Positions 10,029-39,077 of a DNA stretch of 42,827 nucleotides are shown here, piece after piece. Source of the DNA: Alphaproteobacteria bacterium (GTDB lineage Bacteria > Pseudomonadota > Alphaproteobacteria > CAAHEQ01 > UBA3637). The stretch's first letter is position 1; every line of letters starts with the position of its first letter. The notes beneath the pieces were generated by a model that searched no databases, was not told where the DNA came from, and saw only the letters and a program-made list of their open reading frames with translations. The stretch spans positions 1 to 42,827 of the forward strand of contig JAZUQR010000012.1 of NCBI GenBank assembly GCA_045605805.1, given 5' to 3'. The translations under genes and the position numbers were made by a program.

Positions 10029-10063
10029 AAAGCATCTTGCAGACAATGGCAGGGTGCTTTTTT
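10029..10063 (+). terminator. Intrinsic terminator
   Basis: AAAGCATCTTGC-loop-GCAGGGTGCTTTTTT. Confidence 0.7.
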
Positions 10064-10081
10064 AATGCAATCAAAGATATT

Positions 10082-10108
10082 AAGGGTGGCCAATCGGCTG
10101 CCCTTTTT
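10082..10108 (+). terminator. Second intrinsic terminator
   Basis: AAGGGTGGCC-AATC-GGCTGCCCTTTTT. Confidence 0.65.
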
Positions 10109-10141
10109 ATATGCAAAAAATCAAGAAGGGAGAATGAGAAA

Positions 10142-10357
10142 ATGAAGATTGATTGGAAGCGGAAATTGACAAGCAGGAAGTTTTGGGCTGCCGTTGTTGG
10201 CTTCGTATCACCTACCATGATTGCCGTGGGAGCATCCCAAAGCGAAGTAACACAGGTTACCGCAATCATTATGGCAGGAGCCACACTTATTGCCTATATC
10301 ATAGGCGAAGGAATGACGGATGCAGCACTTACAGATAAGGAAAGCGAGGAAGAGTAA
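10142..10357 (+). CDS. Holin
   Basis: MKIDWKRKLTSRKFW, two hydrophobic helices, AYIIGEG..DAA; TAATG coupling to the amidase. Confidence 0.8.
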   Translation: MKIDWKRKLTSRKFWAAVVGFVSPTMIAVGASQSEVTQVTAIIMAGATLIAYIIGEGMTDAALTDKESEEE

Positions 10358-11115
10358 TGGGATATAAATTCAAAACCAACCTTGCAAACAAAGCCAATTT
10401 CGGAAAGGCAAGGGCTTTGTCAGATATTAAGTATATCGTGATCCATTACACCGGGAATGATGGGGATACAGACGAGAACAACGGAAAGTATTTCCGGAAT
10501 AACATTGTGAAAGCATCCGCACATTATTTTGTGGATGATGATTCCATCACACAATCTGTACCAGATGATTATGTGGCATATTCCGTGGGCGGTAAGCGGT
10601 ATTCCAATTATCAGACCACAGGCGGTGCTTCCTTGTATGGTAAAGCAACCAATGCCAACACACTGAACATTGAATTATGTGATGATGTGAAGAACGGCAA
10701 AGTATATCCATCCGCAGGGGTTATTGCCAATGCGATAGAACTTGTTAAAACCAAGATGGCACAGTATAACATCCCGGCATCCAATGTTATCCGTCACTTT
10801 GATGTGAATGGGAAGGGATGCCCGGCATATTGGAGCGGTACCGCAGAAAAGAATGCATTGTGGCAGACGGAATTTAAGGATAAGCTTACCGGGGTAACCA
10901 CAACAACCAAAGCGGAAAACACCGCATATTATCCAAAATACACCGGGAACACCACAAGCATTGTAACAGCACTGAATGCTATTGGGGTGGATGGTTCCTA
11001 TCAGTATAGGAAAAAGATTGCGGTAGCCAATGGCATTGTAGGATATGCCGGAACGGTATCACAAAATACAAGGCTTTTAAATCTGTTAAAGGCCGGACAA
11101 TTAAAGAAAGCATAA
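10357..11115 (+). CDS. Endolysin: N-acetylmuramoyl-L-alanine amidase (Amidase_2) with C-terminal cell-wall-binding domain
   Basis: YIVIHYTGN, SAHYFVD, IELC, RHFDVNGKGCP Zn ligands; C-terminal SIV.AL..IG.D.S...RKKIA..NGI..Y.GT..QN. Confidence 0.9.
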   Translation: MGYKFKTNLANKANFGKARALSDIKYIVIHYTGNDGDTDENNGKYFRNNIVKASAHYFVDDDSITQSVPDDYVAYSVGGKRYSNYQTTGGASLYGKATNANTLNIELCDDVKNGKVYPSAGVIANAIELVKTKMAQYNIPASNVIRHFDVNGKGCPAYWSGTAEKNALWQTEFKDKLTGVTTTTKAENTAYYPKYTGNTTSIVTALNAIGVDGSYQYRKKIAVANGIVGYAGTVSQNTRLLNLLKAGQLKKA

Positions 11116-13775: not shown

Positions 13776-14114
13776 ATGGATATTGGTGGAAATCAGTATT
13801 TGCATTTGCAGATGCTTGATGAATCAACAGAAAATACCATAGCGGAAGATGTACTTGAATGGAAAAGGGTGCATTCCTTATGGGGATTTCTTGATTTAAT
13901 GAGCGGTGATGCAAAGTACAATTACAACGCAAAAATTCAGGAATCAACACACATCTTCATAGCGGACTATGAGCCGTTGCCGGAAGGCTTGACAGCGGAA
14001 AATTGCAGGGCTATGGATGAAAATGGCCTTATATATGAAGTAACCTTGATGGATGATCCAATGAATCTGCATGAACAGTGGGAAATCTTCTTGAAATACA
14101 CAGGGGGGCAATAA
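13776..14114 (+). CDS. Head closure protein
   Basis: Position; WG.LD, ESTHIFIADY, YEVTLMDDPM. Confidence 0.75.
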   Translation: MDIGGNQYLHLQMLDESTENTIAEDVLEWKRVHSLWGFLDLMSGDAKYNYNAKIQESTHIFIADYEPLPEGLTAENCRAMDENGLIYEVTLMDDPMNLHEQWEIFLKYTGGQ

Positions 14115-14115
14115 T

Positions 14116-14613
14116 ATGGCGGTGGAGTTTACAGACAATAGCATGAAAGTAAAGGAAGCCTTAAATGATGCCGTTATTGCCTTTCTGTATGAAGCAGGTG
14201 GAGAACTGGAAGCACAGACCAAGCGGAACAGCAGACCTGTAAAGTATGGTCGGCATGATGTTAAAAATTCATGGAAATATACCGTGGATGAAGATGAAAA
14301 AGAAGCAAAAGTCGGAAGTGAATTGGAAGCATCCTATTGGGAAGAGTTAGGCACCGGGGAACACGCATTGAATAAGGATGGTCGTAAAGGTTGGTGGGTG
14401 TATGTGGAAGGCAATGATACACCACGGAGCAATCAGAAGTATTACACAGAAGAGGAAGCCAAGAGTGTGGCTGCATCCCTTAGAAGTAAGGGGTTGGATG
14501 CACACGCAACAAACGGAACGGAAGCCAACAGGCCATTGTTCAGGGCATTTAGTTCATTAAAAGCCGGGATAATAAGAAGGGCAGCGGAAACCATAGGGGC
14601 GAGGATGGAATAA
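14116..14613 (+). CDS. HK97 gp10-like neck protein
   Basis: VEFTDNS, SWKY.VDE, VGS....WEELGTG, RPLFRAF. Confidence 0.8.
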   Translation: MAVEFTDNSMKVKEALNDAVIAFLYEAGGELEAQTKRNSRPVKYGRHDVKNSWKYTVDEDEKEAKVGSELEASYWEELGTGEHALNKDGRKGWWVYVEGNDTPRSNQKYYTEEEAKSVAASLRSKGLDAHATNGTEANRPLFRAFSSLKAGIIRRAAETIGARME

Positions 14614-14987
14614 TGGAAATCGTAACATTGAATTATCTTTCCAAAGTGATGAAAGAAGAATTGAAACTCAACTACCGCTTCAAGCGGTGGAAAACAAAAC
14701 CTGCATATCCTTATTACACAGGAAGTTATGTGGAAAAATCACCATTGAATGAAGATGGATTGCAGGAATCCACTTTCATTTTGGAAGGGCATAACAGAGG
14801 TTCTTCTATTGTTTTAGAGGAAGATAAGAAAAAGATAAAAGAATATTTTAAAGATGGAAAAACAGCCAAGATGGAAGATGGAACCGTTGTGGCTGTTTTT
14901 TATTCTGATTCTTCCCCGGTAGATACTGTGGATGCGGAATTGGACAAGATACAAATAAATTTAGATGTAAAGGAGTGGAGTAAATGA
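14613..14987 (+). CDS. Tail terminator protein
   Basis: Position before the major tail protein; PAYPYYTGSY, KIQINLDVKEW. Confidence 0.7.
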   Translation: MEIVTLNYLSKVMKEELKLNYRFKRWKTKPAYPYYTGSYVEKSPLNEDGLQESTFILEGHNRGSSIVLEEDKKKIKEYFKDGKTAKMEDGTVVAVFYSDSSPVDTVDAELDKIQINLDVKEWSK

Positions 14988-15739
14988 GAAAATCAGGTAT
15001 TACAAAATCAACACCGAATGATTTTTTGCTGAATGCCGGAGTGGTATTCAAGAATTTTAAGTGGGTGTGGAGCCTTGCCACCGAAGATTCAGAAGGAAAC
15101 TATCCGGATGGTTCTATTGAGATTGTGGCAGACGGTACCAAAGAAACAGAATCCACGATTCAGTTAAAGAAGGTTGCAAGCCCCGGTGTATCATTCATTG
15201 GATTGGCAGCCGATTACACAGCACCTAAAGTAGGTGATCATATCATTGGTGCATGGGATGATTCAGACGAAAATGTTCTTGGTGCAACATCCGGGGGCAA
15301 TAAGCTTTCTATTTTGTCCGAATTAACACCTATTGAAGTGGATGGTGCTTTGGTTAAGGTTAAAGGCTTAACACAGAAAACAGGCGAAACAGGAAGCCTG
15401 GAAACAAATCTTGCACAGCATACGAAGGAATCCTTCATTCGTGCGATTATCGGTAAAGAAGTGGAATCTCTTATTAAGGGATATACACAGCTTACCACCA
15501 AATCATTGATTGAAGCATCCGACTATTTGGACAACATTGCTTTTGTAGGCACCATGTCAGATGGTACGGAATGCATTGTCATTATGGAAAATGCCCTTTG
15601 TACTTCCGGGCTTGAATTGGAGCCTAAGAACAAAGAAACAGCGGTATTGAAAGCAACATTTGAGTGCAACGCAGACTTTGATGATGCACACGATACCTTG
15701 CCTATCTATATTTTTGTACCCAACAAAGAAGCAGCATAA
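14984..15739 (+). CDS. Major tail (tube) protein
   Basis: LLNAGVVFKN, LGATSGG, IEVDG, ENALCTSG; single copy. Confidence 0.85.
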   Translation: MRKSGITKSTPNDFLLNAGVVFKNFKWVWSLATEDSEGNYPDGSIEIVADGTKETESTIQLKKVASPGVSFIGLAADYTAPKVGDHIIGAWDDSDENVLGATSGGNKLSILSELTPIEVDGALVKVKGLTQKTGETGSLETNLAQHTKESFIRAIIGKEVESLIKGYTQLTTKSLIEASDYLDNIAFVGTMSDGTECIVIMENALCTSGLELEPKNKETAVLKATFECNADFDDAHDTLPIYIFVPNKEAA

Positions 15740-15756
15740 GAAGGAGAAGATAACCC

Positions 15757-16272
15757 ATGGATAATAATGCGATTATGGCCAATACAGTTAAAGAAGGCGA
15801 AGTTTTATTGAGCCAGGAAGAGATTGTGCGATTAGCAAACACAGTGGCACCGGAAAAGGCATCCGTTGAAAGACCTTATACATTAAGGAAATTGAAGGAT
15901 GCAGACTTGTTTCCGTTGCTGCAGCTTTTAAGAAAGCTTGGATTTAAAGAAATGAAAGAAACCTTTAACGAGTATAAAGGAAAGTTTAAATTCAATAAAA
16001 ATGATTATGCAACCGAGGAAGAAGCACAGAAGGCTTTGAAGGAAATGAAGGAATCCGCAGGGGTGGATATTGTATTTGAGATGGCAGACTTTATGATTTC
16101 CAAACTTGGAACGCATAGTGATGCAATCTATGATTTCTTTTCTACCTTGGCAGGTGTTCCGGCTGATACCATCAAACAGATGGAATTTGGTACATTACCG
16201 CTTATGATCTATGATACATTCGGTGAGGTAAAGAATACGGCTTTTTTCAAGGTGCTTACCAAATCGCTTTAG
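15757..16272 (+). CDS. Tail assembly chaperone (gpG-like)
   Basis: Between tail tube and TMP; ends ...AFFK at a slippery site. Confidence 0.75.
   Translation: MDNNAIMANTVKEGEVLLSQEEIVRLANTVAPEKASVERPYTLRKLKDADLFPLLQLLRKLGFKEMKETFNEYKGKFKFNKNDYATEEEAQKALKEMKESAGVDIVFEMADFMISKLGTHSDAIYDFFSTLAGVPADTIKQMEFGTLPLMIYDTFGEVKNTAFFKVLTKSL
16242..16248 (+). promoter_or_regulatory. -1 programmed frameshift slippery heptamer T TTT TTC
   Basis: The -1 frame from this site is open (FQGAYQIALVGEM) into ORF 16272-16604, as in lambda G/GT. Confidence 0.75.
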
Positions 16273-16604
16273 TGGGTGAAATGGAGTTCATGGACTTGCT
16301 ATTTTCGAGATATGCAAGTCCTATGGACTTCATGAAGCTTTACATTGACCAGGGGCGGTTTGGTGAATTTGTTTCCGGGATTCTTACAATGGATGATAAA
16401 CGGAAGCAAGAAGAAAAAGAAAAAGAAGATGATAACAAATTGTGGTTTGCTTACCTTATGAGTATGTCAGATAAGAACTTTGAAGCATGGAAGAAAGATT
16501 TGACAAAAACGAAGGCGCCGGAATCATACGCAATGACGGATGAACAGGTGGAAGCAGCCAAGCAAAAAGCGAAGGGAATTATGAAGAAGATTTCCCCGAC
16601 ATAA
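16272..16604 (+). CDS. Tail assembly chaperone C-terminal part (gpT-like)
   Basis: MDLLFSRYASP; reached by the -1 frameshift. Confidence 0.7.
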   Translation: MGEMEFMDLLFSRYASPMDFMKLYIDQGRFGEFVSGILTMDDKRKQEEKEKEDDNKLWFAYLMSMSDKNFEAWKKDLTKTKAPESYAMTDEQVEAAKQKAKGIMKKISPT

Positions 16605-16611
16605 AAGGTGA

Positions 16612-18621
16612 ATGCTTATGGAATTGTTCAAATTGCTTGGAACGATAGCAATAGACAATACAGAAGCAAACAACGCATTGGATAATACATCTGCAAAGGC
16701 AAACGAATCTGCAAGCGAAACGGAATCCGCTTTCAGTAAGATTGGCGGTGTGGCCAAAAAGGTGGCCATTGGAATAGGCACGGCAGGACTTGCCATAGGC
16801 GGTGCTTTTATCGGTGCGGTAGAAAGTACACGAGAGTATAGGGCAGAAATGGCATTGCTTGAATCTGCCTTTTTAACAGCCGGGCATAGTTCGGCAGAAG
16901 CAAAAAGAACATATTCAGAATTAAATGCGGTACTTGGTGATTCCGGGCAAGCGGTGGAAGCATCACAGCATCTTGCAAAGATTGCCGACAACGAAAAGGA
17001 ACTTGCAGGACTAACCGACATTCTAACCGGGGTATATGCCACATTTGGGGAATCTCTTCCGTTGGAAGGATTGGCCGAGGGTATCAACCACAGTGCATCC
17101 CTTGGGGAAGTGCAGGGGAGCCTTGCAGATGCTTTGGAATGGTCGGGAATCAGTGCGGAATCATTCAATGATAAGCTTGCGAAGCTAAAGACCGAGGAAG
17201 AACGGCAGGACCTTATTGTTAAGACTTTAAATGACACATACAGTAAGGCATCCGAACAGTATAAGGAAACCAATGCGGATGTAATGGAAGCAAGGAAAGC
17301 ACAGGAAAGATTGTCAGATGCAATGGCAGAGGTAGGCAGAGTTGGGGAACCAATCATGACCGCCATTAAAAATGCGATTGCAGGAATGGCAGAAAGTGCG
17401 GTGCCTGTTATTGAAAATATGGTGAACGGCTTCCGGGATATGATCCAATGGGTAAAGCAGAACCAAGACACCGTGCAATCATGGGTTGGTGTGATTGTAG
17501 GAGCCACAACAGCGGTAGGAATCTTTGTTTTGATTATTTCCTGGGGAAAAATTATGACCGCTGCAGCAAATGCCATTAAGGTGGTAAGAACGGCAATGAT
17601 TGCCTTCAATACGGTATTGCTTGCCAATCCCATAGGGTTGGTTGTTGCAGCCGTTGCCGGGCTTGTTGCAGCCTTTATATACCTATGGAACAACGTGGAA
17701 GGCTTCCGCAAATTTTGGATAAATGCATGGAACCTGATAAAAAAATATGCTTCCGATTCCTGGAAGGCCATCCGGAAATACTTTTCGGATGCATGGTCAT
17801 CCATTAAAAAAACATGGTCCACGGTGGCAGGTTTCTTCCGTGGGATATGGTCCGGCATAAAGTCGGCTTTTTCGGCAACAAAATCTTGGTTTTCCAATTT
17901 ATTCCGAAACGCATGGAACGGTGTGAAATCCGTATGGAATGGGGCAAGAAGCTTCTTTTCCGGCATATGGTCCGGTATAAGGGGTGTGTTTGGTTCCGTT
18001 GGCTCATGGTTTAGAAGCACCTTTCAAAAAGCATGGTCAAATATAAAATCCGTGTTTTCCGGTTGGGGAAGTTTCTTTTCCGGATTGTGGGGCAAGGTGA
18101 AATCCAAATTCGGTTCAATCGGTACATCCATAGGCACAGCTATGGGAAATGCCGTGAAGAATGGAATGAACGGTGCCTTGTCGAAAGTGGAAAGTGCAAT
18201 CAACAAAGGAATAGGCCTTATAAACAGTGCCATACGGCTTGCCAATAAGCTTCCGGGCATCAATGTTGGTACAGTCGGAAAAATAAGCCTTCCAAGGCTT
18301 ATAAAGGGCGGTGTTTTGGAAAAAGGTCAGGTTGGTTTGCTTGAAGGTACCGGAGCGGAAGCCGTGGTGCCGTTGGAAAGGAATCATGCTTGGCTTTCAA
18401 GGCTTGCACAGGACTTAGACGAGATACAAGGTAGCCGGAGAACATACCAAGACGAAGCATTGATGGAAAGATTAAATCAGATAATATTTTTACTTGAAAA
18501 ACTACTTGGAATGAAAATATATCTTGATTCAGGGGCATTGGTGGGTGAATTAACACCTGCTATGGATGCGAGATTGGGAAGGATATATGACCAAGCAAAC
18601 AGAGGATATACAAGGGGCTGA
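16612..18621 (+). CDS. Tape measure protein A
   Basis: 669 aa; ELFKLLGTIAIDN N-terminus, ANPIGLVV, Trp/Phe 11-residue repeats, G.EAVVPLE, C-terminal YLDSGALVGEL. Confidence 0.9.
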   Translation: MLMELFKLLGTIAIDNTEANNALDNTSAKANESASETESAFSKIGGVAKKVAIGIGTAGLAIGGAFIGAVESTREYRAEMALLESAFLTAGHSSAEAKRTYSELNAVLGDSGQAVEASQHLAKIADNEKELAGLTDILTGVYATFGESLPLEGLAEGINHSASLGEVQGSLADALEWSGISAESFNDKLAKLKTEEERQDLIVKTLNDTYSKASEQYKETNADVMEARKAQERLSDAMAEVGRVGEPIMTAIKNAIAGMAESAVPVIENMVNGFRDMIQWVKQNQDTVQSWVGVIVGATTAVGIFVLIISWGKIMTAAANAIKVVRTAMIAFNTVLLANPIGLVVAAVAGLVAAFIYLWNNVEGFRKFWINAWNLIKKYASDSWKAIRKYFSDAWSSIKKTWSTVAGFFRGIWSGIKSAFSATKSWFSNLFRNAWNGVKSVWNGARSFFSGIWSGIRGVFGSVGSWFRSTFQKAWSNIKSVFSGWGSFFSGLWGKVKSKFGSIGTSIGTAMGNAVKNGMNGALSKVESAINKGIGLINSAIRLANKLPGINVGTVGKISLPRLIKGGVLEKGQVGLLEGTGAEAVVPLERNHAWLSRLAQDLDEIQGSRRTYQDEALMERLNQIIFLLEKLLGMKIYLDSGALVGELTPAMDARLGRIYDQANRGYTRG

Positions 18622-18639
18622 TAATTCAGTCCCTTTTTT
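18612..18639 (+). terminator. Intrinsic terminator between TMP-A and TMP-B
   Basis: AAGGGGCTGA-TAAT-TCAGTCCCTT-TTTT. Confidence 0.65.
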
Positions 18640-18671
18640 GAATTTACGAAGGAAAGGGGGTAACCCTTAGA

Positions 18672-20915
18672 ATGGATATTTTTAGGCTATTTGGAACAAT
18701 AGCAATCGACAATACATCCGCAAACAATGCGATCAATGAAACATCCGACACGGCAGAGCGAGCGGAAAGCAAATTGTCTATTGCATTTCAAAAAATAGGT
18801 TCCGCAGCAATAGCGGTAGGGCAGGTAATGGCCACAGGGCTTGCGGTAGGTATCACGGCAATGGCAGCACTTACCGGGCAAGCATTGAATCTTACCGGGG
18901 AATTGGAACAGAATATGGGCGGTTCCGAAGCGGTCTTTGCTGAATACGCAGAACGAATGCAGGATATAGCTGGGGAAGCCTATGCAAATATGGGCTTGTC
19001 TGCTTCTGATTTCCTTGCAACGGCAAATAAAATGGGAGCCTTATTCCAAGGTGCCGGATTTGGCATTGAGGAATCGGCAACTATCTCCGCAGATGCAATG
19101 CAAAGGGCAGCGGATGTGGCATCAATCATGGGTATTGATGTATCAGTTGCCATGGAATCTATTGCAGGAGCAGCAAAAGGCAATTTCACCATGATGGACA
19201 ATCTTGGTGTGGCAATCAATGATACCACCTTGCAAATCTATGCAATGGAACATGGCCTTGGCGAATTGGTAACCACAGAAGATAAAGTCAGTGCAGCCAT
19301 GCAGATGTTCATGGAAAGCACGGCATATGCAGCAGGGAACTATGCAAGGGAAAATCAGACCTTGGCAGGGTCTTTGACAACGGCAAAGGCAGCATTACAA
19401 AACTTCCTTACCGGGGTAACAAGTGCAGACCAATTTGCGGATGCACTTACCAATGCAGGGGATGTAATCATTGACAATCTTGTGGAATTGGTTCCCCGAC
19501 TTATTGAAGGTTTGACAGAATTGATGGAAATTCTTATGCCGGAACTTCCTGGGATATTAGAATCCGTTTTGCCCGGAATTATTGATGGTGCTTTTCTACT
19601 AATTGAAGGATTGGCAACCATTTTGCCGGATTTATTAAGCATTCTTGGTGGGATAATCAGTGAACGATTACCGGATTTGTTGCAATTATTTGCGAATGCA
19701 TTAAGTATGCTTGGTGGAATAATTAGCGAAAGTTTGCCTGATTTATTGCAAATTGGGTTGGATATTCTTTTACAGATTGTGCAAGGCATGGCAAACGCAT
19801 TGCCCGAAGCATTACCAACTATTGTGAATGTTGTGTTGCAGCTTATAGACATAATCATTCAAAATATTCCGTTGTTTATTTCGGCAGCGGCACAGTTGAT
19901 ACAGGGATTGTTGCAGGGATTGATAAGTGCAATGCCTATGATTTTGGAATATCTTCCAATTATGTTGGAGAGTATCACATCCGCTTTGATAGAATCATTG
20001 CCATTGCTGATTGAATGCGTTGTATCCCTTATAACATTTATCGGTGAGGAATTACCCACAATTATTGACATAATTGTCCAAATTTTGCCGGATTTGATGG
20101 ATTTATTGGTTGATGGATTTATTGCATTGCTACCTGTTTGGATTGAAGGCTTGATTGCATTTATTACGGCAATCGCAGAGCAACTTCCCGATATATGCGT
20201 GGCATTGTTCGAAGCACTTCCCCAAATTGTGGATTCAATTTTGCAGGGATTGGTGGTGTTGGGTTCACGGCTTAGGACAGAAATTCTTGATCCAATGGTG
20301 AATCGGTTTGTAATTTGGTTGAATACCATCAAAAACAGAATATTCGGTGCGGTGAATGTTGCAAAGAATTATATTGTAAATGGATTTGAAACAGCAAAAG
20401 AAGCCCTTGCGGAAATTGCCGAAGGAATCAAATCGAAGTTCACGGATGCATTCAATTCCTTGGTGGATATAGTGCGTTCACCGCTTAATTCAATTATTGG
20501 ATTTGTCAATCAGGTGATTGATGCCCTTAACTCTATAAGCATTGATATTCCCGATTGGGTGCCGGAGTATGGCGGTCAAACCTTCGGTATTAACATTCCG
20601 AACATTTCCTATCTTGCCAAGGGTGGTGTAATTACGGAACCTGCACTTCTTGGGTACAATCCATTGTCCGGAAGGGGAGTGGTTGCAGGAGAAGCAGGGG
20701 ATGAAGCTATTGCACCGATTGGAGTTTTACAGGCTTATATTGAAGAAGCGGTGGCACGGCAAAACTATGCACTTGTGGCGGTTTTGGAAAGAATCCTGGA
20801 AGCCATCATTGCTTTGGATGCGAACATGGGCGGTAATTTAAGTGAAGCATTGGAAGGCTTAACATTTTCGGCAGATAAAAGGGAATTTGCCCGGTTAGTA
20901 AAGGCGGTGAACTGA
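18672..20915 (+). CDS. Tape measure protein B
   Basis: 747 aa; DIFRLFGTIAIDN N-terminus, AKGNFTMMDNL, Leu/Ile/Pro 11-residue repeats, LAKGG, AGEAGDEAIAP, C-terminal REFARLV. Confidence 0.9.
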   Translation: MDIFRLFGTIAIDNTSANNAINETSDTAERAESKLSIAFQKIGSAAIAVGQVMATGLAVGITAMAALTGQALNLTGELEQNMGGSEAVFAEYAERMQDIAGEAYANMGLSASDFLATANKMGALFQGAGFGIEESATISADAMQRAADVASIMGIDVSVAMESIAGAAKGNFTMMDNLGVAINDTTLQIYAMEHGLGELVTTEDKVSAAMQMFMESTAYAAGNYARENQTLAGSLTTAKAALQNFLTGVTSADQFADALTNAGDVIIDNLVELVPRLIEGLTELMEILMPELPGILESVLPGIIDGAFLLIEGLATILPDLLSILGGIISERLPDLLQLFANALSMLGGIISESLPDLLQIGLDILLQIVQGMANALPEALPTIVNVVLQLIDIIIQNIPLFISAAAQLIQGLLQGLISAMPMILEYLPIMLESITSALIESLPLLIECVVSLITFIGEELPTIIDIIVQILPDLMDLLVDGFIALLPVWIEGLIAFITAIAEQLPDICVALFEALPQIVDSILQGLVVLGSRLRTEILDPMVNRFVIWLNTIKNRIFGAVNVAKNYIVNGFETAKEALAEIAEGIKSKFTDAFNSLVDIVRSPLNSIIGFVNQVIDALNSISIDIPDWVPEYGGQTFGINIPNISYLAKGGVITEPALLGYNPLSGRGVVAGEAGDEAIAPIGVLQAYIEEAVARQNYALVAVLERILEAIIALDANMGGNLSEALEGLTFSADKREFARLVKAVN

Positions 20916-20916
20916 T

Positions 20917-21738
20917 ATGATGGAAAGAATTAAATATATCAATCATAGAAATGAAGTGCTTGATTTCGGGGCAAATGGCCTATATATCAATGAGAATGAT
21001 TTGCGTGATTTTGTATGGTCTATTATTTCAAAGAATAACCGTATCACAGGATTCAAGAAAGGGGTGGTTTCAAGGACCATCCCTGTTATTATTTCCACCA
21101 CATCCGAAGCGGAATGTACGGCAAAGTTAAATGCATTATATGAGATATGCGAAAAGGATGTTCTTGCGGTGCAGCATGGAAGGTTTGTGATTGGTGACTA
21201 CTATTTGAAGTGCTTTGTTACCACTTCAAAGAAGAAGGACTACTTGACAAGCCGACAATACAAGTCAATTCAACTTAAAATATCAACCGATATGGCATAT
21301 TGGGTAAAAGAAACGGTCACAACCTTTGGATATGGAGCAGGAAAGAAAGGTTCTAATCTTGATTATAACAATGATTTCCCATACGACTACACATCCAACA
21401 TTATGAATCAATCACTGAATAACACAGGCTTTGTCCCGGTGAATTTCAGGATGAACATATATGGACCATGCACCAATCCAAAAGTAACCATAGGCGGTCA
21501 TGAATATGAAGTATTTGCAGAATTTGAAGCCAATGAGTATTTGGCCATTGATTCTATCAGTAAAAAAATAACCTTAACGCATACGGATGGAAGCACGGAA
21601 AATTGCTTCAACCTTAGGAATAAAGATTCATACATCTTTGAAAAAATCCCGGTGGGAGTGAATACGGTATCATCCAGTGCGGAATTTAAGTTTGATGTTA
21701 CCCTTTTCGAGGAAAGGGGGGAACCTAAGTGGACTTGA
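20917..21738 (+). CDS. Distal tail protein (Dit) B
   Basis: Directly after TMP-B; WVKE, DYNNDFPYDY, IYGPCTNP, FEKIPVG.N, EERGEPKW. Confidence 0.8.
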   Translation: MMERIKYINHRNEVLDFGANGLYINENDLRDFVWSIISKNNRITGFKKGVVSRTIPVIISTTSEAECTAKLNALYEICEKDVLAVQHGRFVIGDYYLKCFVTTSKKKDYLTSRQYKSIQLKISTDMAYWVKETVTTFGYGAGKKGSNLDYNNDFPYDYTSNIMNQSLNNTGFVPVNFRMNIYGPCTNPKVTIGGHEYEVFAEFEANEYLAIDSISKKITLTHTDGSTENCFNLRNKDSYIFEKIPVGVNTVSSSAEFKFDVTLFEERGEPKWT

Positions 21739-23162
21739 TCTATATGAACCGGAGCCGGGAAGATGAAGGGGTGCTTGCGGATTTTACCTTTGATTTGGCT
21801 TTTGGTAAAGATGAAAATAACTTTGAATGCGTGGTTGACACAGAAAGCCATTGTTGTGAAGAAGGGTATTTCCTGTATTACGAAGGCACAGAATACGGTG
21901 GAATCATTGATAAAATTAAGGTGGCCACGGAAAAGTCGGAAATAACCTATATCGGCAGAACATGGCATGGGTTGTTGGAATCCAAGGTGATTGAACCATT
22001 GAAGGCCACGGATGAAAGCGGTGGCGGTGCGACAGTGCATAAAGGTGGGAAAAACCTTATTCCTTATCCGTATTACAATAAATCTATGACTTCAAAAGGT
22101 ATTGAATGGGTGGTAAATGGAGACGGAACAGTGACCGCTAATGGAACAGCAACGGCCACTTCTATATTCTTTTGTACTTTTAGAACAGAGAATCTAAAAC
22201 AAGGCAAATATATATTAAGCGGTTGTCCTAACAGTGGGAGCAGACAAACATATTATCAATGGTTTGGAATATGGGATGGAACAAGTAATGTATATGGTGC
22301 TTATGACATCGGAAGTGGTGCAAATATAACTGTAAAAAGTGAACACGAAAAACATTATGTAGTAATTGGGTGCTATGTATATGCAGGTGCAACCGTTGAA
22401 AATCTTACATTTTATCCGCAATTAGAAGTAGGCGAAAAGGCCACATCATATCAACCATATAAAAGCCTTGAAAAAGAATATCTTATGTTATCAGGGGAAG
22501 CAAACAGTGTGATTGGTTGGTTGGTTGAAAGAATGGGGCTTGGGGCTATGTTTACGGCTTCCACGGAAGATTCTGGCATTGACATTTCCAATTACAAAAT
22601 GAACCGTTATATAGGCGGTTATGAAGGCATACGGAAGATGCTTAAAGATGCAGGGGCAAAATTGCATATAGAGTTTAAAGAAGGCTTTGCGGAACTATCT
22701 GCAAGGCCTTTGGTTGATTACTCAAAGGATGAAGAATTTGATACAGACCAAATTGATTTTGAGATTGAAAAGAATTTCCATCCTATCAACCATGTAATAT
22801 GCCTGGGAGCCGGGAATCTATCAGAACGTGAAGTGATTCATGTATATGCGGATGCATCCGGGAACATAAGCACAACGCAGAGTATTTTCGGCATTGATGA
22901 AGTGACCGCAAAATATGACAATCCAAACGCAGAATCAAGTGAAGCCCTTAGGCAGGGTGGAATTGATTTAATAAAGGCATCATGGAATGCCGACAAGGTG
23001 GATTTTGATTTCAATTCAAATGAAAAAACCTATGATATAGGGGATGTGGTAGGGGCAAGGGAATTTGTCACCGGAATATCCGCATCTTCTGAAATCGTGA
23101 AAAAGATTGTCAAAATAAAGGACAATACAACAACAATATCATATGAGGTAGGTGAAGTATAA
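21729..23162 (+). CDS. Tail hub/Tal-like protein B (ReqiPepy6 gp37-like) with inserted carbohydrate-binding-like domain
   Basis: DLAFG..ENNFE, GTEYGGII, GRTWHG, NHVICLG.G, YDIGDVV; insert GKNL...YPQLEVGEKATSYQPY. Confidence 0.75.
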   Translation: MDLIYMNRSREDEGVLADFTFDLAFGKDENNFECVVDTESHCCEEGYFLYYEGTEYGGIIDKIKVATEKSEITYIGRTWHGLLESKVIEPLKATDESGGGATVHKGGKNLIPYPYYNKSMTSKGIEWVVNGDGTVTANGTATATSIFFCTFRTENLKQGKYILSGCPNSGSRQTYYQWFGIWDGTSNVYGAYDIGSGANITVKSEHEKHYVVIGCYVYAGATVENLTFYPQLEVGEKATSYQPYKSLEKEYLMLSGEANSVIGWLVERMGLGAMFTASTEDSGIDISNYKMNRYIGGYEGIRKMLKDAGAKLHIEFKEGFAELSARPLVDYSKDEEFDTDQIDFEIEKNFHPINHVICLGAGNLSEREVIHVYADASGNISTTQSIFGIDEVTAKYDNPNAESSEALRQGGIDLIKASWNADKVDFDFNSNEKTYDIGDVVGAREFVTGISASSEIVKKIVKIKDNTTTISYEVGEV

Positions 23163-23866
23163 TGCATTTAGTAACAGGGTACGCAGGAGAAGAACACATT
23201 CAATCAAAAGACCAAGGTTCCTTCAATGCTGCATTTTTTGGTGCGGATCAGTTCGTGATGGAATCGGGCAATCAATTTGAAGCATCTATATTGAACAACA
23301 ATACGGTGCGAGTTTTAGACGGTGACGGTCTTATGTACGGAAGGCATTTCCTCATTGAACCGAATACCTATGAGGATGTAACCATCACCACAGGTACAGC
23401 CGGGGTGAATCGTATTGATTTAATCGTGGTAAGGTATGAAAAGAACCAAAATGATGGAACGGAAAAAACCTATTTGGAAGTAATTAAGGGAACGGAAAAG
23501 GAATCCGGAGCCGTAGCACCTGCATATACAGATGGAAATATTCTTGAAGGTGCCACCATGAATCAGATGCCATTGTATCAGGTGGCTATCAATGGGGTGG
23601 TGTTGGAAAGTGTGACACCGCTTTTCAAAACAAAACCTTCCTATCAGGAATTGGCGAGAATGTATGAAGCAGAATTTAAAAAGGCTTGCGAAACACATTT
23701 GGATTCTTTGAATGTTTTGGACACCATGGAAGAAGTGGGAGCCAACACACAGGCAAAACAACTTGCCGGAGCATTGGCGGTGAAGGAACTTGCAATGGGC
23801 TTGGGTACAGTTGAATTTCGGGTGAACAATGGACAGTTGCAATATAGATACGAAAGCGAGGAATAA
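23162..23866 (+). CDS. Baseplate/fibre anchor protein B
   Basis: MHLVTGYAG..HI, NNTVRVLDG, RIDLIVVRY, MPLYQV. Confidence 0.7.
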   Translation: MHLVTGYAGEEHIQSKDQGSFNAAFFGADQFVMESGNQFEASILNNNTVRVLDGDGLMYGRHFLIEPNTYEDVTITTGTAGVNRIDLIVVRYEKNQNDGTEKTYLEVIKGTEKESGAVAPAYTDGNILEGATMNQMPLYQVAINGVVLESVTPLFKTKPSYQELARMYEAEFKKACETHLDSLNVLDTMEEVGANTQAKQLAGALAVKELAMGLGTVEFRVNNGQLQYRYESEE

Positions 23867-23869
23867 GGC

Positions 23870-24298
23870 ATGGGAACAATGACAGAATGGCAGGATGTTG
23901 GAATGAATAGCGAAGAAAAGGCACAGTTGCAAGCGATTTATGACAAGGTTGTTATATCAGGAGAAACAATCCCGACAGTAATAACTTCTGGGAATGGGTG
24001 GACAGAAGGTGTAACAAGCGGAACATATACATTTGAAGAAAATATAAAATATGGGTTGATAGTGTGCCATTGCGAATGTTCAAAGTCCACTAACAAACCG
24101 AATTTTGGGGCAACAATCGACAATGAGTTCATTTCTTTGATTAACCAAGTATATCATCCAGGTTCTTCAAATTATGGAATCGCATGTGTTGATATTAAAA
24201 CATACGAAATCAAAGATATACCGCAAGGGGCCATATTAAATTGGACAGTGAGTGATTCGGCAAATGCCAAAGACATTGTACTTTTTAAAATAAATTAA
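23870..24298 (+). CDS. Putative receptor-binding/variable domain protein of module B
   Basis: Beta-rich, AT-rich ORF in frame with the upstream gene. Confidence 0.5.
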   Translation: MGTMTEWQDVGMNSEEKAQLQAIYDKVVISGETIPTVITSGNGWTEGVTSGTYTFEENIKYGLIVCHCECSKSTNKPNFGATIDNEFISLINQVYHPGSSNYGIACVDIKTYEIKDIPQGAILNWTVSDSANAKDIVLFKIN

Positions 24299-24348
24299 AA
24301 ATACAATAACAACTTTCAAATTATAAAAAAAATAAGTGGGTGGTAATT

Positions 24349-24561
24349 ATGCTTAGAGTACAATTCAATGATTCCCTTTCCATGCAGGCGGTGGATTTCA
24401 AAACCATTTCTGATTCCGTTGTGCAATTAACCGGGGAGAAAGTCCCGGAGAACACATCCGGATTCAAAGTGTACCGTCTGAATGGTGAATTTTTGGGAGA
24501 TTATTCAGACTACAAAAAAATAGTGGCAGAGGTAAAGAACGGCTTCCAGTTCGGGAAGTAA
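24349..24561 (+). CDS. Small tail-associated protein
   Basis: NTSGFKVY...LGDYSDYK motif at the end of module B. Confidence 0.55.
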   Translation: MLRVQFNDSLSMQAVDFKTISDSVVQLTGEKVPENTSGFKVYRLNGEFLGDYSDYKKIVAEVKNGFQFGK

Positions 24562-24604
24562 TACAAAAGATAACCTTGCAAATGGCAAAGAAAGTGAGGT
24601 TATC

Positions 24605-25243
24605 ATGAAAGGCATACAGTTTGGCAAATATCATTCTTGGAATGATTTTGCACTGATATTAACATCAAAGGAAATCGGAACACCATCTATCAAAACGGAA
24701 ACCATTGATATACCGGGCGGTGATGGTGTTCTTGATTTAACGGAATTTTTTGGTGATGTAAAGTACAGCAACAGGCCGTTATCTTTTGAGTTTTCCACCA
24801 TAGTTCCGCAAAGTGAATTTATGAATCTTTTTTCGAGGGTACAGGATGCCTTGCATGGTCGCAAAGTGGAAATAACCTTGGATGAAGATGCACAGTGGTA
24901 TTATATCGGCAGATTGGAAATATCACCTTGGAAAGCAGAGAAAAGCATTGGAAAATTCACGATTGATTGTGATTGCGAGCCGTACAAGGTAAAGAAAAAT
25001 GATACCATTGTCACAGTAAATGTGGCAGAGGAAACCACGGTTATTTTGCACAATAGCAGAAAAGCGGTGGTGCCTACCATTGATATAACCGGGGAAATCA
25101 ATTTGACCTATGGGGTCAATTATTACACCTTATCCGCAGGGCGGTATGACCTTCCGGGGGTTCAGTTGGTAGAAGGGGATAATACCATTCTATTAAACGG
25201 AGCAGGAACGGCAACCTTCACATATCGTGAAAGGGGGCTTTAG
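24605..25243 (+). CDS. Distal tail protein (Dit) A
   Basis: MKGIQFGKYHSWNDF, IDIPGGDGVLDLTE, YYIGR, CDCEPYK, final YRERGL. Confidence 0.85.
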   Translation: MKGIQFGKYHSWNDFALILTSKEIGTPSIKTETIDIPGGDGVLDLTEFFGDVKYSNRPLSFEFSTIVPQSEFMNLFSRVQDALHGRKVEITLDEDAQWYYIGRLEISPWKAEKSIGKFTIDCDCEPYKVKKNDTIVTVNVAEETTVILHNSRKAVVPTIDITGEINLTYGVNYYTLSAGRYDLPGVQLVEGDNTILLNGAGTATFTYRERGL

Positions 25244-25244
25244 G

Positions 25245-26831
25245 ATGTACCAGGTATATTGCGATTCATGGCTTCTTTATAATGACCAAATGGAAGATTA
25301 TAAGATTGTCAATCCTAAGGTGGAATTGGAATTGAATCAACTTGGGAAATTTGATTTTTCCATATATAACAACCATCCGAATTTTGATAAATTAAAACGG
25401 CTTAAATCTATCATCCAAGTATTTCAGGATGATTTTTTATTGTTCCGGGGAAGAATCTTGGATGATGAACAGGGATTCTATAACGAAAAACAGGTGATGT
25501 GCGAAGGGGAACTTGCCTTTTTGGTCGATTCCATCCAAAGGCCTTATGATTTCAACGGAAGCCCGGCAGAATTGTTTGTTTTCTTTATAAACAACCACAA
25601 TGCACAGGTGGATGCAGACCATCAATTCAAAGTGGGAAATATTACGGTCACGGATCCAAACGATTATATAGCCCGGAGCGATTCCGAATACCTGAATACC
25701 TGGGAATCTATCAATAAGAAACTGATAGAAACCCATGGGGGATATATTTGGGTACGGCATGAAGCGGATGGTGTGTATATAGACTATTTGGCAGAATTGA
25801 ATCTATTATCACCGCAGAAGATAGAGTTCGGGAAAAACCTTTTGGATTTGAAAAGAGCCACCAAAGGACAGGATATTGCAACGGCTATCATCCCTTTGGG
25901 AGCCAAGGAAGGGGAATCCCGGATTGATATAACATCTGTGAATAACGGTGTTGATTATGTGTATAACCAAGAAGCGGTTGATACATACGGATGGATATAT
26001 CAGAAACAGATATGGGATGATGTAACGGAGCCGGGGAACCTATTGACCAAGGGCAATGCATATCTAATGGAAAAGATAAAGATGCTTTATTCCATAGAAT
26101 TGGATGCAGCGGATATGGCCACGGTGGATAAGACGGTGGAATCCTTCCATCTTGGAACACAAGTGCAGGTTACCACGAATCCGCATTCCATAGACCGTTT
26201 GTTTTTGGTATCGAAGCTTTCCATATTATTATTGCAACCTGCATCCAATAGGCTAACCTTAGGGGATGCTTACTACACCATGACAGAACAAACGGTGAAG
26301 GGGCAAATAGCCACGGAAAACAAGTTGGTGGGTATTTCTTCGGATTTACAAGAAAGGCTTCAAAATGGGCTTACAGAAACGGAAACAAAGCTATCTGCAC
26401 AGATACTTGCCACATCCGAGAGCATCACGGCAACGGTTATGGAAGAAGTGTATTTGAAAGATGATGTGGATGCCTTGGTTTCTTCCGTGAATACGCAAAT
26501 ATCACAGACCGCAGAAGATGTGGAAATAAGGTTTAATGAGTTTTCGCAAGATATAGATGCGGTTGCAGCCGGAGCAGATGCACAGTTTGAGGAAATAAGC
26601 AAATATATCCGGTTTGTGGATGGCAACATCATCCTGGGGGAAGAAGGAAACACACTTACCCTTAGAATTGAGAATGACCGCATTTCCTTTTTGGATAGCG
26701 GATTGGAAGTGGCATACCTAAGCAATTCCAAGCTTTATGTCACGGATGGGGAATTTTTGCATTCCTTGCAATTAGGGAATTTTGCATTTATCCCAAGAAC
26801 CAACGGAAATTTATCCTTTAAAAAATTATAG
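25245..26831 (+). CDS. Tail hub/Tal protein A (prophage endopeptidase tail-like) with coiled-coil extension
   Basis: LFRGR, CEGELAFLVDS, IEFGKNLLD, TAIIPLGA, YIRFVDGNIILG. Confidence 0.85.
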   Translation: MYQVYCDSWLLYNDQMEDYKIVNPKVELELNQLGKFDFSIYNNHPNFDKLKRLKSIIQVFQDDFLLFRGRILDDEQGFYNEKQVMCEGELAFLVDSIQRPYDFNGSPAELFVFFINNHNAQVDADHQFKVGNITVTDPNDYIARSDSEYLNTWESINKKLIETHGGYIWVRHEADGVYIDYLAELNLLSPQKIEFGKNLLDLKRATKGQDIATAIIPLGAKEGESRIDITSVNNGVDYVYNQEAVDTYGWIYQKQIWDDVTEPGNLLTKGNAYLMEKIKMLYSIELDAADMATVDKTVESFHLGTQVQVTTNPHSIDRLFLVSKLSILLLQPASNRLTLGDAYYTMTEQTVKGQIATENKLVGISSDLQERLQNGLTETETKLSAQILATSESITATVMEEVYLKDDVDALVSSVNTQISQTAEDVEIRFNEFSQDIDAVAAGADAQFEEISKYIRFVDGNIILGEEGNTLTLRIENDRISFLDSGLEVAYLSNSKLYVTDGEFLHSLQLGNFAFIPRTNGNLSFKKL

Positions 26832-26843
26832 TAGGGGGCATAT

Positions 26844-28868
26844 ATGGCAACATCAAGTGCAATGTCAACTACAAATGATAAAATCAAATATAAAATTACG
26901 ATAACACAGAATAGTCAAAGCATAGCCAACAATACATCCAATGTCACGGTATCGGTTAGGGTATATCGTACCAATACCGGATATACCACATACGGCACAG
27001 GAACGGTGTATTGCACGATAAACGGCACACAGTACACGGAAGCAATCACATCTTCGGATAAGATTACCAATTCCGGAATAGTGCTTTTTTCAAAAACCCT
27101 GAACATATCACATAGTGCGGATGGTTCAAAAACCTTGGCCACATCTGCAAGAATAACGCATGATCAGTTTTCTTCCAGTAGTCAAAGTTATTCGCAGACA
27201 TTGACCACGATTCCAAGGGCAACCACACCTACATTGTCGGCATCATCCGTCAATATGGGGGCATCCATCACTATCAATATGCCAAGGGCATCAAGCAGCT
27301 TTGACCATACCTTGACATATAAATTCGGAAGTGCTACCGGAACCATAGGAAGTGACCTAGGAACATCAAAGGCATGGACAGTGCCTTTATCCTTGGCAAG
27401 TCAGATTCCAAGCGGAACATCCGGCACCTGCACGATTACTTGCAAGACTTATAACGGAAGTACACTGATAGGCACCAAGACGGTTTCTTTTACCGCCAAG
27501 GTGCCTTCTTCCGCTGTGCCTACCTTTGGAAGCGTTGCGGTGGCAGATACCAATTCGGCATATGCAACACAATTTGGAAGTTTGGTGCAAGGGAAATCCA
27601 AGGCAAAATTCACAATTACGGCTTCCGGGGCTTACGGTTCCACCATAAAGACTTACAAAACAGTAATTGAAGGAAAGACATACACCGGAGCATCCCCGAC
27701 AACAGCGGTATTGACCGGAAGTGGCAATGTATCGGCTTCTATAACGGTAACGGATAGCAGGGGAAGAACGGCAACTACAACAAAGACTTTCTATCTGATT
27801 CCTTATAATGCACCAAGTATCACGGTATTTGAAGCGGTAAGGACAGATGCGGAAGGGTTGGAAAACTATGAAGGCATGAATGCAAAGGTGTCTGTGAATT
27901 TTAGCCTTGCAACGGCAAGCAGCAAGAACACATCATCATACAAGATAGAATACAAGAAGCAATCTGCAAGCACATGGGAAGAGATACAAAATGGTACAGG
28001 GTATTCATTGAACACAAGCATCATCACAGATGCGGTGTTTGACGGAAATTCCGCTTATGATGTTCGGTTGACCGTTACAGATTATTTTGGAAGCATAGCA
28101 AGGACAACAGCCCTTCCAACGGCCTTCACATTGATTGATTATCATTCATCCGGAAGGGGAATGGCATTTGGTAAGGTATCAGAAAAAGAAGGGCTTGAAA
28201 TTGCCCTTCCGACATTCTTTTCAAATGCAGAAACACCTTCTTCAATGAAATATCTGCAAGGTGGCGAAGATTTCAACAATATTCTTGAACCGGGATTCTA
28301 TGCAATCCCGACAACAGCCATTTCCGGCACTTTATTAAATAAGCCATGGGAAGGCACCGCAACAGGAAGCCTGATTGTATTAAGGGAAGGAAACGGACTT
28401 CAAAAGATGCAGATAGCCCATAGAGGTTCCAAGGATGATGGTGCTATATATGAACGAAGCTACTATCAGAATGCGTGGGGAGATTGGCACACCGTACATG
28501 ACGGAAAAGGAAAGATTCTATGGTCCGGTGGTTATTTCATGACCGCAGGACATATTATTTCTTTTTCGGAACCTGCAAGCAAACAGCCTTCCGGGATTGT
28601 GCTTGTATTTTCGGAATACTATGATGCAGAATCAAAAAATCAATCATTTTCAAGCCATTTCGTACACAAAAGATTGATAGAATCCCATTCAGGGTCAGGG
28701 CATAATTTCATAATGTCAACAAGCAATATGGCATATATGGCCACAAAGTATTTGTATATCCGGGATGATGGAATCACCGGGCATAACAATAATTCACTCA
28801 CCTTGACAGGAAGCGGTGTAACACTAAACAATAACAGGTTTGTGTTGCGATATGTTTTAGGTGTGTAG
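26844..28868 (+). CDS. Tail fibre/receptor-binding protein A (siphovirus DUF859-like)
   Basis: QSIANNTSNV, LTTIPRAT, VTDSRGR, GMAFGKVSE, DFNNILEPGFY knob, LRYVLGV. Confidence 0.8.
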   Translation: MATSSAMSTTNDKIKYKITITQNSQSIANNTSNVTVSVRVYRTNTGYTTYGTGTVYCTINGTQYTEAITSSDKITNSGIVLFSKTLNISHSADGSKTLATSARITHDQFSSSSQSYSQTLTTIPRATTPTLSASSVNMGASITINMPRASSSFDHTLTYKFGSATGTIGSDLGTSKAWTVPLSLASQIPSGTSGTCTITCKTYNGSTLIGTKTVSFTAKVPSSAVPTFGSVAVADTNSAYATQFGSLVQGKSKAKFTITASGAYGSTIKTYKTVIEGKTYTGASPTTAVLTGSGNVSASITVTDSRGRTATTTKTFYLIPYNAPSITVFEAVRTDAEGLENYEGMNAKVSVNFSLATASSKNTSSYKIEYKKQSASTWEEIQNGTGYSLNTSIITDAVFDGNSAYDVRLTVTDYFGSIARTTALPTAFTLIDYHSSGRGMAFGKVSEKEGLEIALPTFFSNAETPSSMKYLQGGEDFNNILEPGFYAIPTTAISGTLLNKPWEGTATGSLIVLREGNGLQKMQIAHRGSKDDGAIYERSYYQNAWGDWHTVHDGKGKILWSGGYFMTAGHIISFSEPASKQPSGIVLVFSEYYDAESKNQSFSSHFVHKRLIESHSGSGHNFIMSTSNMAYMATKYLYIRDDGITGHNNNSLTLTGSGVTLNNNRFVLRYVLGV

Positions 28869-28897
28869 ATAAAAAACAAAAGAAAGGAGCAATCATC

Positions 28898-29146
28898 ATG
28901 GAAACAATCATATCTGCAGCGGTCACAGGGGGGCTTGCACTTATAGGGGTAATAATTACATCTATTGCAAGCAACCGTAAAATCGAAAACAAATTAACCA
29001 CGGCACAGGCGGTCACAGAGATTAAAATTGATGAATTGACAAGGGAAGTCCGGGAGCATAACAATTTTGCCCGAAGGATGCCTGTGGTGGAAGAACAGAT
29101 AAAGGTTATCAATCACCGCATTGATGATTTGGAAAAAGCACAGTGA
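28898..29146 (+). CDS. Small membrane protein (holin/XhlA-like)
   Basis: N-terminal TM helix, LTREVREHNNFARRMPVVEEQIKVINHRIDDLE; at the usual lysis position. Confidence 0.7.
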   Translation: METIISAAVTGGLALIGVIITSIASNRKIENKLTTAQAVTEIKIDELTREVREHNNFARRMPVVEEQIKVINHRIDDLEKAQ

Positions 29147-29147
29147 T

Positions 29148-29180: not shown

Positions 29181-29213
29181 ATGTAATAATAAGAAGAAAA
29201 AGGATGATGCAGG

Positions 29214-39060: not shown

Positions 39061-39077
39061 AAAGCGAGGATAAGAGA

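Follow-up and report, generated by a model that had tools for sequence, protein, structure and literature searches.

Introduction

In phage 80alpha, residues 1–37 of the tape measure protein (TMP) gp56 form a strand and a helix, and three such N-termini add strands to the beta-hairpin of one tail completion protein (TCP), gp51, giving a five-stranded sheet; the strand of the TMP N-terminus forms only in the complex (bioRxiv 10.1101/2024.12.10.627806). In phage TP901-1, the N-terminal 154 residues of the TMP are required, and the authors locate the TMP N-terminus at the terminator or connector (PMC5099701; these two sources, as well as PMC13595954 and PMC7698478 below, are cited from excerpts of their texts). 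Here, we describe a stretch of 42,827 nucleotides (contig JAZUQR010000012.1 of assembly GCA_045605805.1; hereafter, the window), which is the complete genome of a temperate siphophage on a single contig of a 1.21-Mb binned genome. It contains two TMP genes in tandem, TMP-A and TMP-B, which have similar N-termini and are followed by an inner tip set, with the distal tail protein Dit1 and the tail-associated hub protein Tal1, and an outer tip set, with Dit2, Tal2, and a DUF859 tail protein. Both TMPs are complete and share a generic N-terminal module. The arrangement is probably best explained by two tails, in which this module would act as a neck handle of both TMPs and each class of TMP C-terminus would operate with a tip of its own.

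Two complete tape measure genes in tandem

Comparison of TMP-A with TMP-B by BLASTP yielded a single significant alignment, in which 31 of 62 positions are identical (50%; E 5e-12 in this one comparison) and which spans residues 3–62 of the 669-aa TMP-A open reading frame (ORF) and residues 1–60 of TMP-B. Within the first 43 codons, 24 of the 43 residues are identical, 12 being specified by the same codon and 12 by a synonymous codon, while 80 of the 129 nucleotides match (62%), with no exact run longer than 9 nt. The proportions of synonymous and nonsynonymous differences in these codons are 0.64 (pS) and 0.31 (pN), respectively, with a ratio of nonsynonymous to synonymous substitution rates (dN/dS) of about 0.28. 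Synonymous sites are near saturation, and the common segment is thus old and under purifying selection. An initial annotation, made from the letters of the window alone, had reported both ORFs with peptides quoted from them, all of which are present in the sequence, and had taken the segment to be selected, in agreement with the above values. The 24-nt example that it quoted for synonymous differences is likewise present, but differs at only 2 positions.

The same annotation regarded an N-terminal segment of about 40 aa as the only part common to the two proteins, which is correct in so far as no other pairwise alignment is significant, but does not extend to profile comparisons. TMP-A (phrog_58, 1272, 1535, 3981, 991, and others) and TMP-B (phrog_991, 1272, 58, 5493, and others) match the same PHROG tape-measure profiles, including phrog_58, 991, and 1272, over most of their lengths, and a second short motif, GG..(gap)..G.G.EA..P, is found in both (residues 564–586 of TMP-A and 651–683 of TMP-B), about 80–100 residues from the C-terminus. 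The bodies differ as had been described, with Trp/Phe repeats in TMP-A and Leu/Ile/Pro repeats in TMP-B. Each protein contains the N-terminal motif, a hydrophobic stretch, repeats, the C-proximal motif, and a C-terminal tail, and both genes are located downstream of the tube and chaperone genes and upstream of Dit/Tal genes; TMP-B directly follows TMP-A, and the Dit matching TMP-A lies 6 kb downstream. By all of these features, TMP-A and TMP-B are both complete tape measures. The TMP-A ORF opens at 16612, which had been given as its beginning, but the ribosome site AAAGGTGA abuts 16612 and the N-terminal motif of relatives (MELF or a near variant) is located at the position equivalent to 16618; the ATG at 16618 is therefore the likely start.

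Conservation of the doubled layout in related loci

Related loci were collected from 38 viral contigs and 2 contigs of metagenome-assembled genomes (MAGs), to which a gut phage contig from GenBank and another phage of the same bin were added. Together with the window, these amount to 43 loci; 11 of them break off inside TMP-A or shortly past its end, leaving 32 evaluable loci. A second TMP with the N-terminal motif, either complete or truncated by the contig end, is present in all of them (32/32), and it starts 43–69 nt past the TMP-A stop codon, except in one locus, where the distance is 618 nt. TMP-A is conserved, with relatives 53–97% identical and complete copies mostly of 628–669 aa, whereas TMP-B is variable, with relatives 22–85% identical and complete copies of 552–961 aa. 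The genes following TMP-B are of at least four kinds. The Dit2–Tal2 pair is present in every locus that extends that far, and the DUF859 gene follows where the sequence continues. On this comparison, the doubled layout of tail initiator genes is real and conserved. A literature search, which left subscription journals mostly outside its reach, found no published account of complete TMP genes in tandem that are accompanied by duplicated Dit–Tal sets, and a megablast search of positions 14000–26000 against the phage collection gave no match.

Two of the loci showed additional features. The second related phage in the 1.21-Mb bin (L049; contig C16 of genome G000, about 38100–42310) carries its own TMP-A, which is 75% identical to that of the window, and a 720-aa second TMP; the bin may thus hold two phages of one lineage, or phage contigs may have been mis-binned. 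In locus L031 (5705–6589), the TMP-A reading frame is 294 aa long and closes 67 nt short of the contig end, perhaps owing to a frameshift or sequencing error, or because the copy is broken.

C-terminal classes of the TMPs and their tip genes

When the last 45 residues of each TMP were classed by alignment score, the extreme C-termini of TMP-A and TMP-B were found to differ in a patterned way. All of the 23 unique TMP-A C-termini belong to class alpha; no Dit gene is adjacent to these TMPs and Dit2 is located downstream. The TMP-B C-termini were distributed among four classes: class alpha, followed by a Dit2-like Dit and a Tal2-like hub (5/5); class beta, followed by a member of the Dit1 family (11/11); class gamma, followed by a small phrog_1194 protein and a phrog_18190 protein (3/3); and class delta, a single copy with its own Dit type. 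One further class-beta TMP-B ends at the contig end, and one TMP-B located before a Dit1 gene scored just below the threshold.

The C-terminal class of a TMP thus evidently tracks the Dit/Tal family. Since class alpha accompanies the Dit2/Tal2 family wherever this family is located, TMP-A would pair with the distal, non-adjacent set and TMP-B with the adjacent one. The initial annotation had pointed out that the C-termini differ and had proposed that each selects its own tip; the first point was confirmed, with the difference ordered by class, and the second gains support from the perfect co-variation of C-terminal class with Dit/Tal family. The inner tip set next to TMP-B is swappable.

Family-wide occurrence of the N-terminal motif

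A tblastn search with residues 1–47 of TMP-A identified 27 phage records, in each of which (27/27) the match, at 38–54% identity, lies at the start of a TMP gene; the hosts are Streptococcus, Enterococcus, Lactococcus, Listeria, Terrisporobacter, and Stenotrophomonas. Phages Javan215, phiFL4A, Q33, P40, and TPWB-10 possess a single TMP each, with tip genes directly after it, and this TMP begins with the motif at 38–50% identity. A motif profile of 59 positions, built from 45 N-termini and searched against 1.84 billion entries, detected 1488 representatives of protein clusters at E<=1e-3, of which 482 reached E<=1e-10. In nearly all of the best 150 matches, as in all copies from the lineage, the alignment begins at residue 1 or close to it. 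In a search of the Protein Data Bank (PDB) with the N-terminus, only a marginal match was obtained (E 0.45; virus TMP chain 9h4p), and a PDB sequence search with the TCP gave no match.

The common 45–60 residues thus represent, by sequence, the standard N-terminal module of a large TMP class of Firmicutes-type siphophages, not an adapter invented in this phage, and the module is old, under purifying selection, and generic. It had been read in the initial annotation as a selected adapter, with its occurrence at equal identity in unrelated single-tail phages named beforehand as the observation that would count against such a role; the motif does head the sole TMP of single-TMP phages at comparable identity, and the adapter reading is accordingly given up. 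The annotation's observations as a whole are partly confirmed, and its interpretation is partly supported.

The A–B identity of the motifs within a phage (0.464) and between phages (0.454) was similar (permutation p 0.12, 21 unique pairs), and because within-phage similarity is not above between-phage similarity, concerted evolution of the two N-terminal motifs is not indicated. Among the 120 closest homologues of the TMP-B body, 114 also had the motif and three of the six exceptions appeared truncated; nothing therefore points to a graft of the TMP-B N-terminus onto a foreign body. The sole TMP of two gut phages of the 'Ca. Heliusvirales' (L050, 6653–9058; L051, 6395–8656) is 33–35% identical to the TMP-B body and has a different N-terminal subtype. 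Because TMP-B-like proteins are the sole TMPs of these phages, the inner tip cassette is seen to resemble the ordinary tip modules of other gut phages.

Hairpin at the junction between TMP-A and TMP-B

By one fixed rule, a hairpin followed by a T run was found within -30 to +60 nt of the stop codon at 23 of the 24 unique TMP-A stops. The same rule gave 0/28 for the TCP, 0/28 for the terminator, 2/30 for the tube protein, 0/26 for chaperone T, and 1/23 for TMP-B, and none at the stops of the tip genes (Dit1, 0/13; Tal1, 0/12; Dit2, 0/20; Tal2, 0/17). The stem sequence varies among loci, with pairing preserved. In the window, the GC-rich hairpin overlaps the TMP-A stop codon (18612–18635), and a strong GGGGG ribosome site for TMP-B lies 3' of the hairpin and T run. 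We would guess that this element is an attenuator or an mRNA end that reduces downstream expression; a hairpin at this position would lower the expression of all genes downstream of TMP-A.

Organization of the tail gene region

On the + strand, the genes for terminase, portal, head proteins, and two head–tail adaptors are followed by those for the TCP, the terminator candidate, the tube protein, and the chaperone pair, and then by the tandem TMP genes, Dit1, Tal1, three small genes, Dit2, Tal2, and the DUF859 tail protein (Table 1).

Table 1. Tail genes and associated elements of the window, with the basis of each assignment.
Feature	Position	Strand	Basis
Tail completion protein (TCP)	14116..14613	+	Pfam PF04883 HK97-gp10_like, 23.7 bits (cut-off 21.4)
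Tail terminator candidate, single copy	14613..14987	+	phrog_957, E 5e-12; kept in relatives
Major tail (tube) protein, single copy	14984..15739	+	phrog_885, E 7.8e-48
Tail assembly chaperone pair	15757..16604	+	phrog_1021; G 15757-16272, T 16272-16604 in -1 frame
TMP-A, 667 aa, complete tape measure, class-alpha C-terminal tail	16618..18621	+	Matches 36 PHROG families, mostly TMP families
TMP-A N-terminal motif, first 43 codons	16618..16746	+	Alignment to TMP-B, motif profile
Terminator-like GC hairpin and T run, over TMP-A stop codon	18612..18645	+	10-pair stem
TMP-B, 747 aa, complete second tape measure, class-beta C-terminal tail	18672..20915	+	Matches 21 PHROG families, mostly TMP families
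TMP-B N-terminal motif, first 43 codons	18672..18800	+	Alignment to TMP-A, motif profile
Dit1, distal tail protein, inner tip set	20917..21738	+	phrog_33, E 3.8e-17
Tal1, baseplate hub/tail-associated protein, inner set	21729..23162	+	phrog_538; AlphaFold2 model, Foldseek
Three inner-set genes (234, 142, and 73 aa)	23162..24561	+	phrog_9994 for the first; no family for the other two
Dit2, distal tail protein, conserved outer tip set	24605..25243	+	phrog_33, E 9.4e-23
Tal2, tail-associated hub protein, outer set	25227..26831	+	PF06605 Prophage_tail, 60.1 bits; phrog_3558, E 4e-124
DUF859 tail protein, after Tal2	26844..28868	+	PF05895, 208.5 bits; phrog_372

The TCP is retained in 34 related loci besides the window. 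A terminator role for the following gene is suggested because it sits between the TCP gene and the major tail protein gene. The tube protein is 30–44% identical to the tube proteins of single-TMP phages with the same TMP N-terminal motif. A possible slippery site, T_TTT_TTC, is located at 16242–16248, 22 nt before the stop codon of chaperone G and in a register that fits a -1 shift into the T frame, from which we infer a -1 frameshift in the usual G/GT arrangement; the 50-nt gap preceding TMP-B contains no second chaperone pair.

Tal1 had no Pfam match. Its AlphaFold2 model (predicted local distance difference test score, pLDDT, 76) matched hub/Tal chains in Foldseek, i.e. Listeria gp18 (3gs9), 80alpha (6v8i), phage p2 (2x53), and Mu gp44 (1wru), with a probability of 1.00 but low TM-scores (0.2–0.5). 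The protein has an inserted beta-rich domain at about residues 90–248 (window 21997–22575 corresponds to residues about 90–282), which is missing from the 317–343-aa Tal1 proteins of seven relatives. A common fold is assigned to the two Dits from their phrog_33 matches, and to the two hubs from Foldseek (Tal1) and Pfam (Tal2); hhalign comparisons of Dit1 with Dit2 and of Tal1 with Tal2, made with shallow alignments, detected no similarity. The three small inner-set genes, which vary or are swapped out in relatives, probably encode tip accessory or receptor-binding proteins, and Dit2 shows 45–97% identity across relatives.

Elsewhere in the genome, a holin-like gene (phrog_297) and endolysin/amidase genes are located at 10037–11115, between the minor head protein and scaffold genes, which is an unusual position for a lysis cassette in that it is not at the end of the late operon. 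Two adjacent ORFs (34974–35642 and 35701–36450) both match the DNA methyltransferase family phrog_757 and could be either two enzymes or one split gene.

Candidate docking of the N-terminal module on the TCP

The TCP of the window weakly matches, at E 0.0034, phrog_5 ('tail completion or Neck1'), to which 80alpha gp51 belongs (E 6.5e-27), whereas six further phages, each motif-bearing or related, all have TCPs that fall strongly in this family. Two of the features expected of docking as in 80alpha are seen here, i.e. the motif lies at the extreme N-terminus of the TMP and a TCP of the gp51/HK97 gp10 family is encoded in the same module. By analogy with 80alpha, the N-terminal module is most likely a head-proximal handle that docks on the TCP, which appears to be a likelier partner than the terminator. 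Three TMP N-termini would thereby dock on a single TCP inside the neck end of the tube. An AlphaFold2 monomer model of the 60-residue N-terminus was all helix (pLDDT 68). Prediction of the complex of the TCP with three TMP N-termini gave a median score of 0.31 (mark, 0.32) from runs of 0.31, 0.02, and 0.55, with controls at 0.01–0.02, and counts neither for nor against binding.

The genes for the TCP, the terminator, the tube protein, and the chaperone pair are each present once in the window, and for this reason both TMPs would have kept the N-terminal module. That a single tube protein, terminator, and chaperone pair serve two TMPs had been proposed in the initial annotation and is supported by the single copies of these genes, to which the completion protein can be added.

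Interpretation and alternative explanations

We infer, as the favoured reading of these genes, that one tube set supports two alternative tails. TMP-A would nucleate tails on Dit2–Tal2–DUF859 and TMP-B would nucleate tails on the adjacent Dit1–Tal1 set, such that one infected cell would make two tail types with different tips. Both TMPs would retain the handle, since completion of either kind of tail would depend on one common TCP, terminator, tube, and chaperone pair. With a conversion of 0.15 nm per residue (PMC3556154), tail lengths would be about 100 and 112 nm, respectively.

Several points weigh against this reading. All of the relatives are metagenome contigs. The spread of TMP-B lengths is unexpected if tail length matters, and the hairpin could mean that TMP-B and the tip genes are expressed weakly or conditionally. 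As for the docking step, its basis is one of analogy, the match of the window TCP to phrog_5 is weak, and neither the 80alpha TMP N-terminus nor gp51 shows significant pairwise similarity to the window proteins (BLASTP for gp51). In addition, the motif travels together with the same tube and chaperone families, such that the TCP, terminator, and chaperones are inseparable as partners by sequence.

The four alternatives to parts of this proposal differ in how much of it they would replace. An artefactual second TMP, arising from chimeric assembly or from one TMP split into two frames, would remove its foundation, and the contig of the window is indeed derived from a metagenome; the recurrence of the layout in 31 further loci, drawn from numerous metagenomes as well as a GenBank phage contig and a MAG, and the presence of the N-terminal motif and a full C-terminal region in both ORFs, which thus are not halves of one gene, make this chance practically negligible. 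A split tape measure in particular was ruled out, the ORFs being not complementary and both ends being present in each. It is also highly improbable that the similarity of the N-termini is the residue of a recent tandem duplication or of gene conversion and could drive recombination that deletes or swaps TMP-A. The genes do lie in tandem, 12 residues are identical in a run of 13, and, in three of nine pairs compared between phages (L012/L032, L017/L012, and L022/L016), nucleotide identity falls from 70–86% to 30–50% at 50–170 nt into TMP-B, as might be seen if cassettes had been exchanged at a junction close to the motif. Such a step is equally what purifying selection on the motif would give, however, and the high pS, the 62% DNA identity with its 9-nt longest run, the lack of any excess in within-phage similarity, and the retention of both TMPs in every evaluable relative all argue otherwise. 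In Logan contigs of four runs (animal gut metagenomes, including one RNA library) compared with 14000–29500, no joint between about 16640 and about 18695 was found, a weak test given that these contigs are short and fragmentary. The deletion or swapping of TMP-A that the initial annotation had envisaged is accordingly poorly supported. The sole well-supported joint in the tail-tip region (>=30 letters on each side) lies inside Tal1, where one contig has 106 other letters in place of 21997–22575.

The remaining two alternatives accept both TMPs as they are. The N-terminal segment might be a recognition signal for the single chaperone pair (G/GT, 15757–16604) instead of a handle for the TCP or neck: one chaperone pair precedes the two TMPs, the 50-nt gap between these leaves no room for another, and the families phrog_1021 and phrog_1294 recur in motif-bearing relatives. 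We nevertheless judge this unlikely, as the excerpts of the TP901-1 study assign chaperone binding to the hydrophobic regions and aromatic repeats of the TMP and not to its N-terminus (PMC5099701), and the sole structure that resolves a TMP N-terminus, that of 80alpha, shows contact with the TCP, according to the excerpted text (bioRxiv 10.1101/2024.12.10.627806). Alternatively, both TMPs and both Dit–Tal sets might enter one composite tail, with stacked rings or a mixed TMP bundle, and the N-terminus might aid co-assembly by aligning such a bundle at the neck; some phages do have more than one distal tail protein, arranged in two separate rings, as excerpts from one report describe (PMC13595954). 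Nevertheless, each TMP ends in a complete C-terminal tail that corresponds to its own Dit/Tal family. Compared with TMP-A, the TMP-B of some relatives is shorter, while that of others exceeds it by up to 300 aa, which misfits a fixed nested geometry, and the excerpts of the 80alpha report describe solved siphophage tails as one TMP trimer ending in one hub trimer (bioRxiv 10.1101/2024.12.10.627806). A composite tail therefore seems rather improbable to us.

Extending the two-tail reading to the lineage, we tentatively suggest, at somewhat below even chances, that temperate siphophages of this gut Clostridia type make two kinds of virion as a form of host-range bet-hedging that operates on the whole tail initiator, with a common head, neck, tube, and chaperones, two initiators, one fixed and one exchangeable tip, and a ratio set by the hairpin. 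Each initiator would consist of a TMP, a Dit, a Tal, and tip proteins, with the C-terminal tail of the TMP keyed to the tip and the N-terminal handle to the common neck. The inner initiator set would be a swappable cassette of at least four types, providing an exchangeable second tip beside the fixed one, and the hairpin between the TMP genes would set the ratio of the two tails.

If the two-tail reading is true, tail assembly is more modular than in the textbook picture of one TMP and one tip, the TMP is a two-ended adaptor, generic at the neck and tip-specific at the far end, and a phage could hedge its host range via two tail types. The correspondence of TMP C-terminal class to Dit/Tal family offers a practical rule by which TMP–tip pairs can be predicted, and could guide tail-tip swaps in laboratory phages. 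The N-terminal motif by itself is ordinary; demonstrating this removes a tempting over-reading, and its setting matters more.

Comparison with known systems

The window resembles 80alpha in having the element at the extreme TMP N-terminus, a phrog_5 TCP upstream of the terminator and tube genes, and the identical gene order of TCP, terminator, tube, chaperones, and TMP. It differs in that 80alpha has one TMP and one tip set, and binding in the window is proposed by analogy from the genes. Phages Q33, phiFL4A, Javan215, P40, and TPWB-10 have TMPs of the same class, to which that of TP901-1 also belongs, together with homologous tube proteins (30–44%) and phrog_5 TCPs; in these single-TMP phages, however, the TMP gene abuts the Dit gene, without a hairpin and without a second TMP–Dit–Tal set.

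Phages Mu (G segment) and P1 (C segment) are examples in which one genome gives rise to two kinds of particle differing in their host-recognition parts, with fibre genes that are switched by DNA inversion through an invertase and inverted repeats. An invertible host-range switch of this type was considered for the window and rejected, given that there are no flanking inverted repeats and no invertase nearby: the best inverted repeat in 14000–29500 is 30 nt long at 73% and flanks no tip set, and the sole recombinase is a 573-aa integrase (phrog_95) encoded beside the repressor gene. Unlike the Mu and P1 segments, the two sets of the window have the same orientation, and it is the whole tail initiator (TMP, Dit, and Tal), not a fibre, that is duplicated. 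Phages with p2-type baseplates and Nocturne116 are similar to the window in possessing more than one Dit-fold protein or ring per phage, as described in excerpts of the respective reports (PMC13595954, PMC7698478). According to the same excerpts, the Dits of these phages belong to a single tail that has one TMP and one hub, whereas each Dit of the window is accompanied by its own hub gene and its own TMP.

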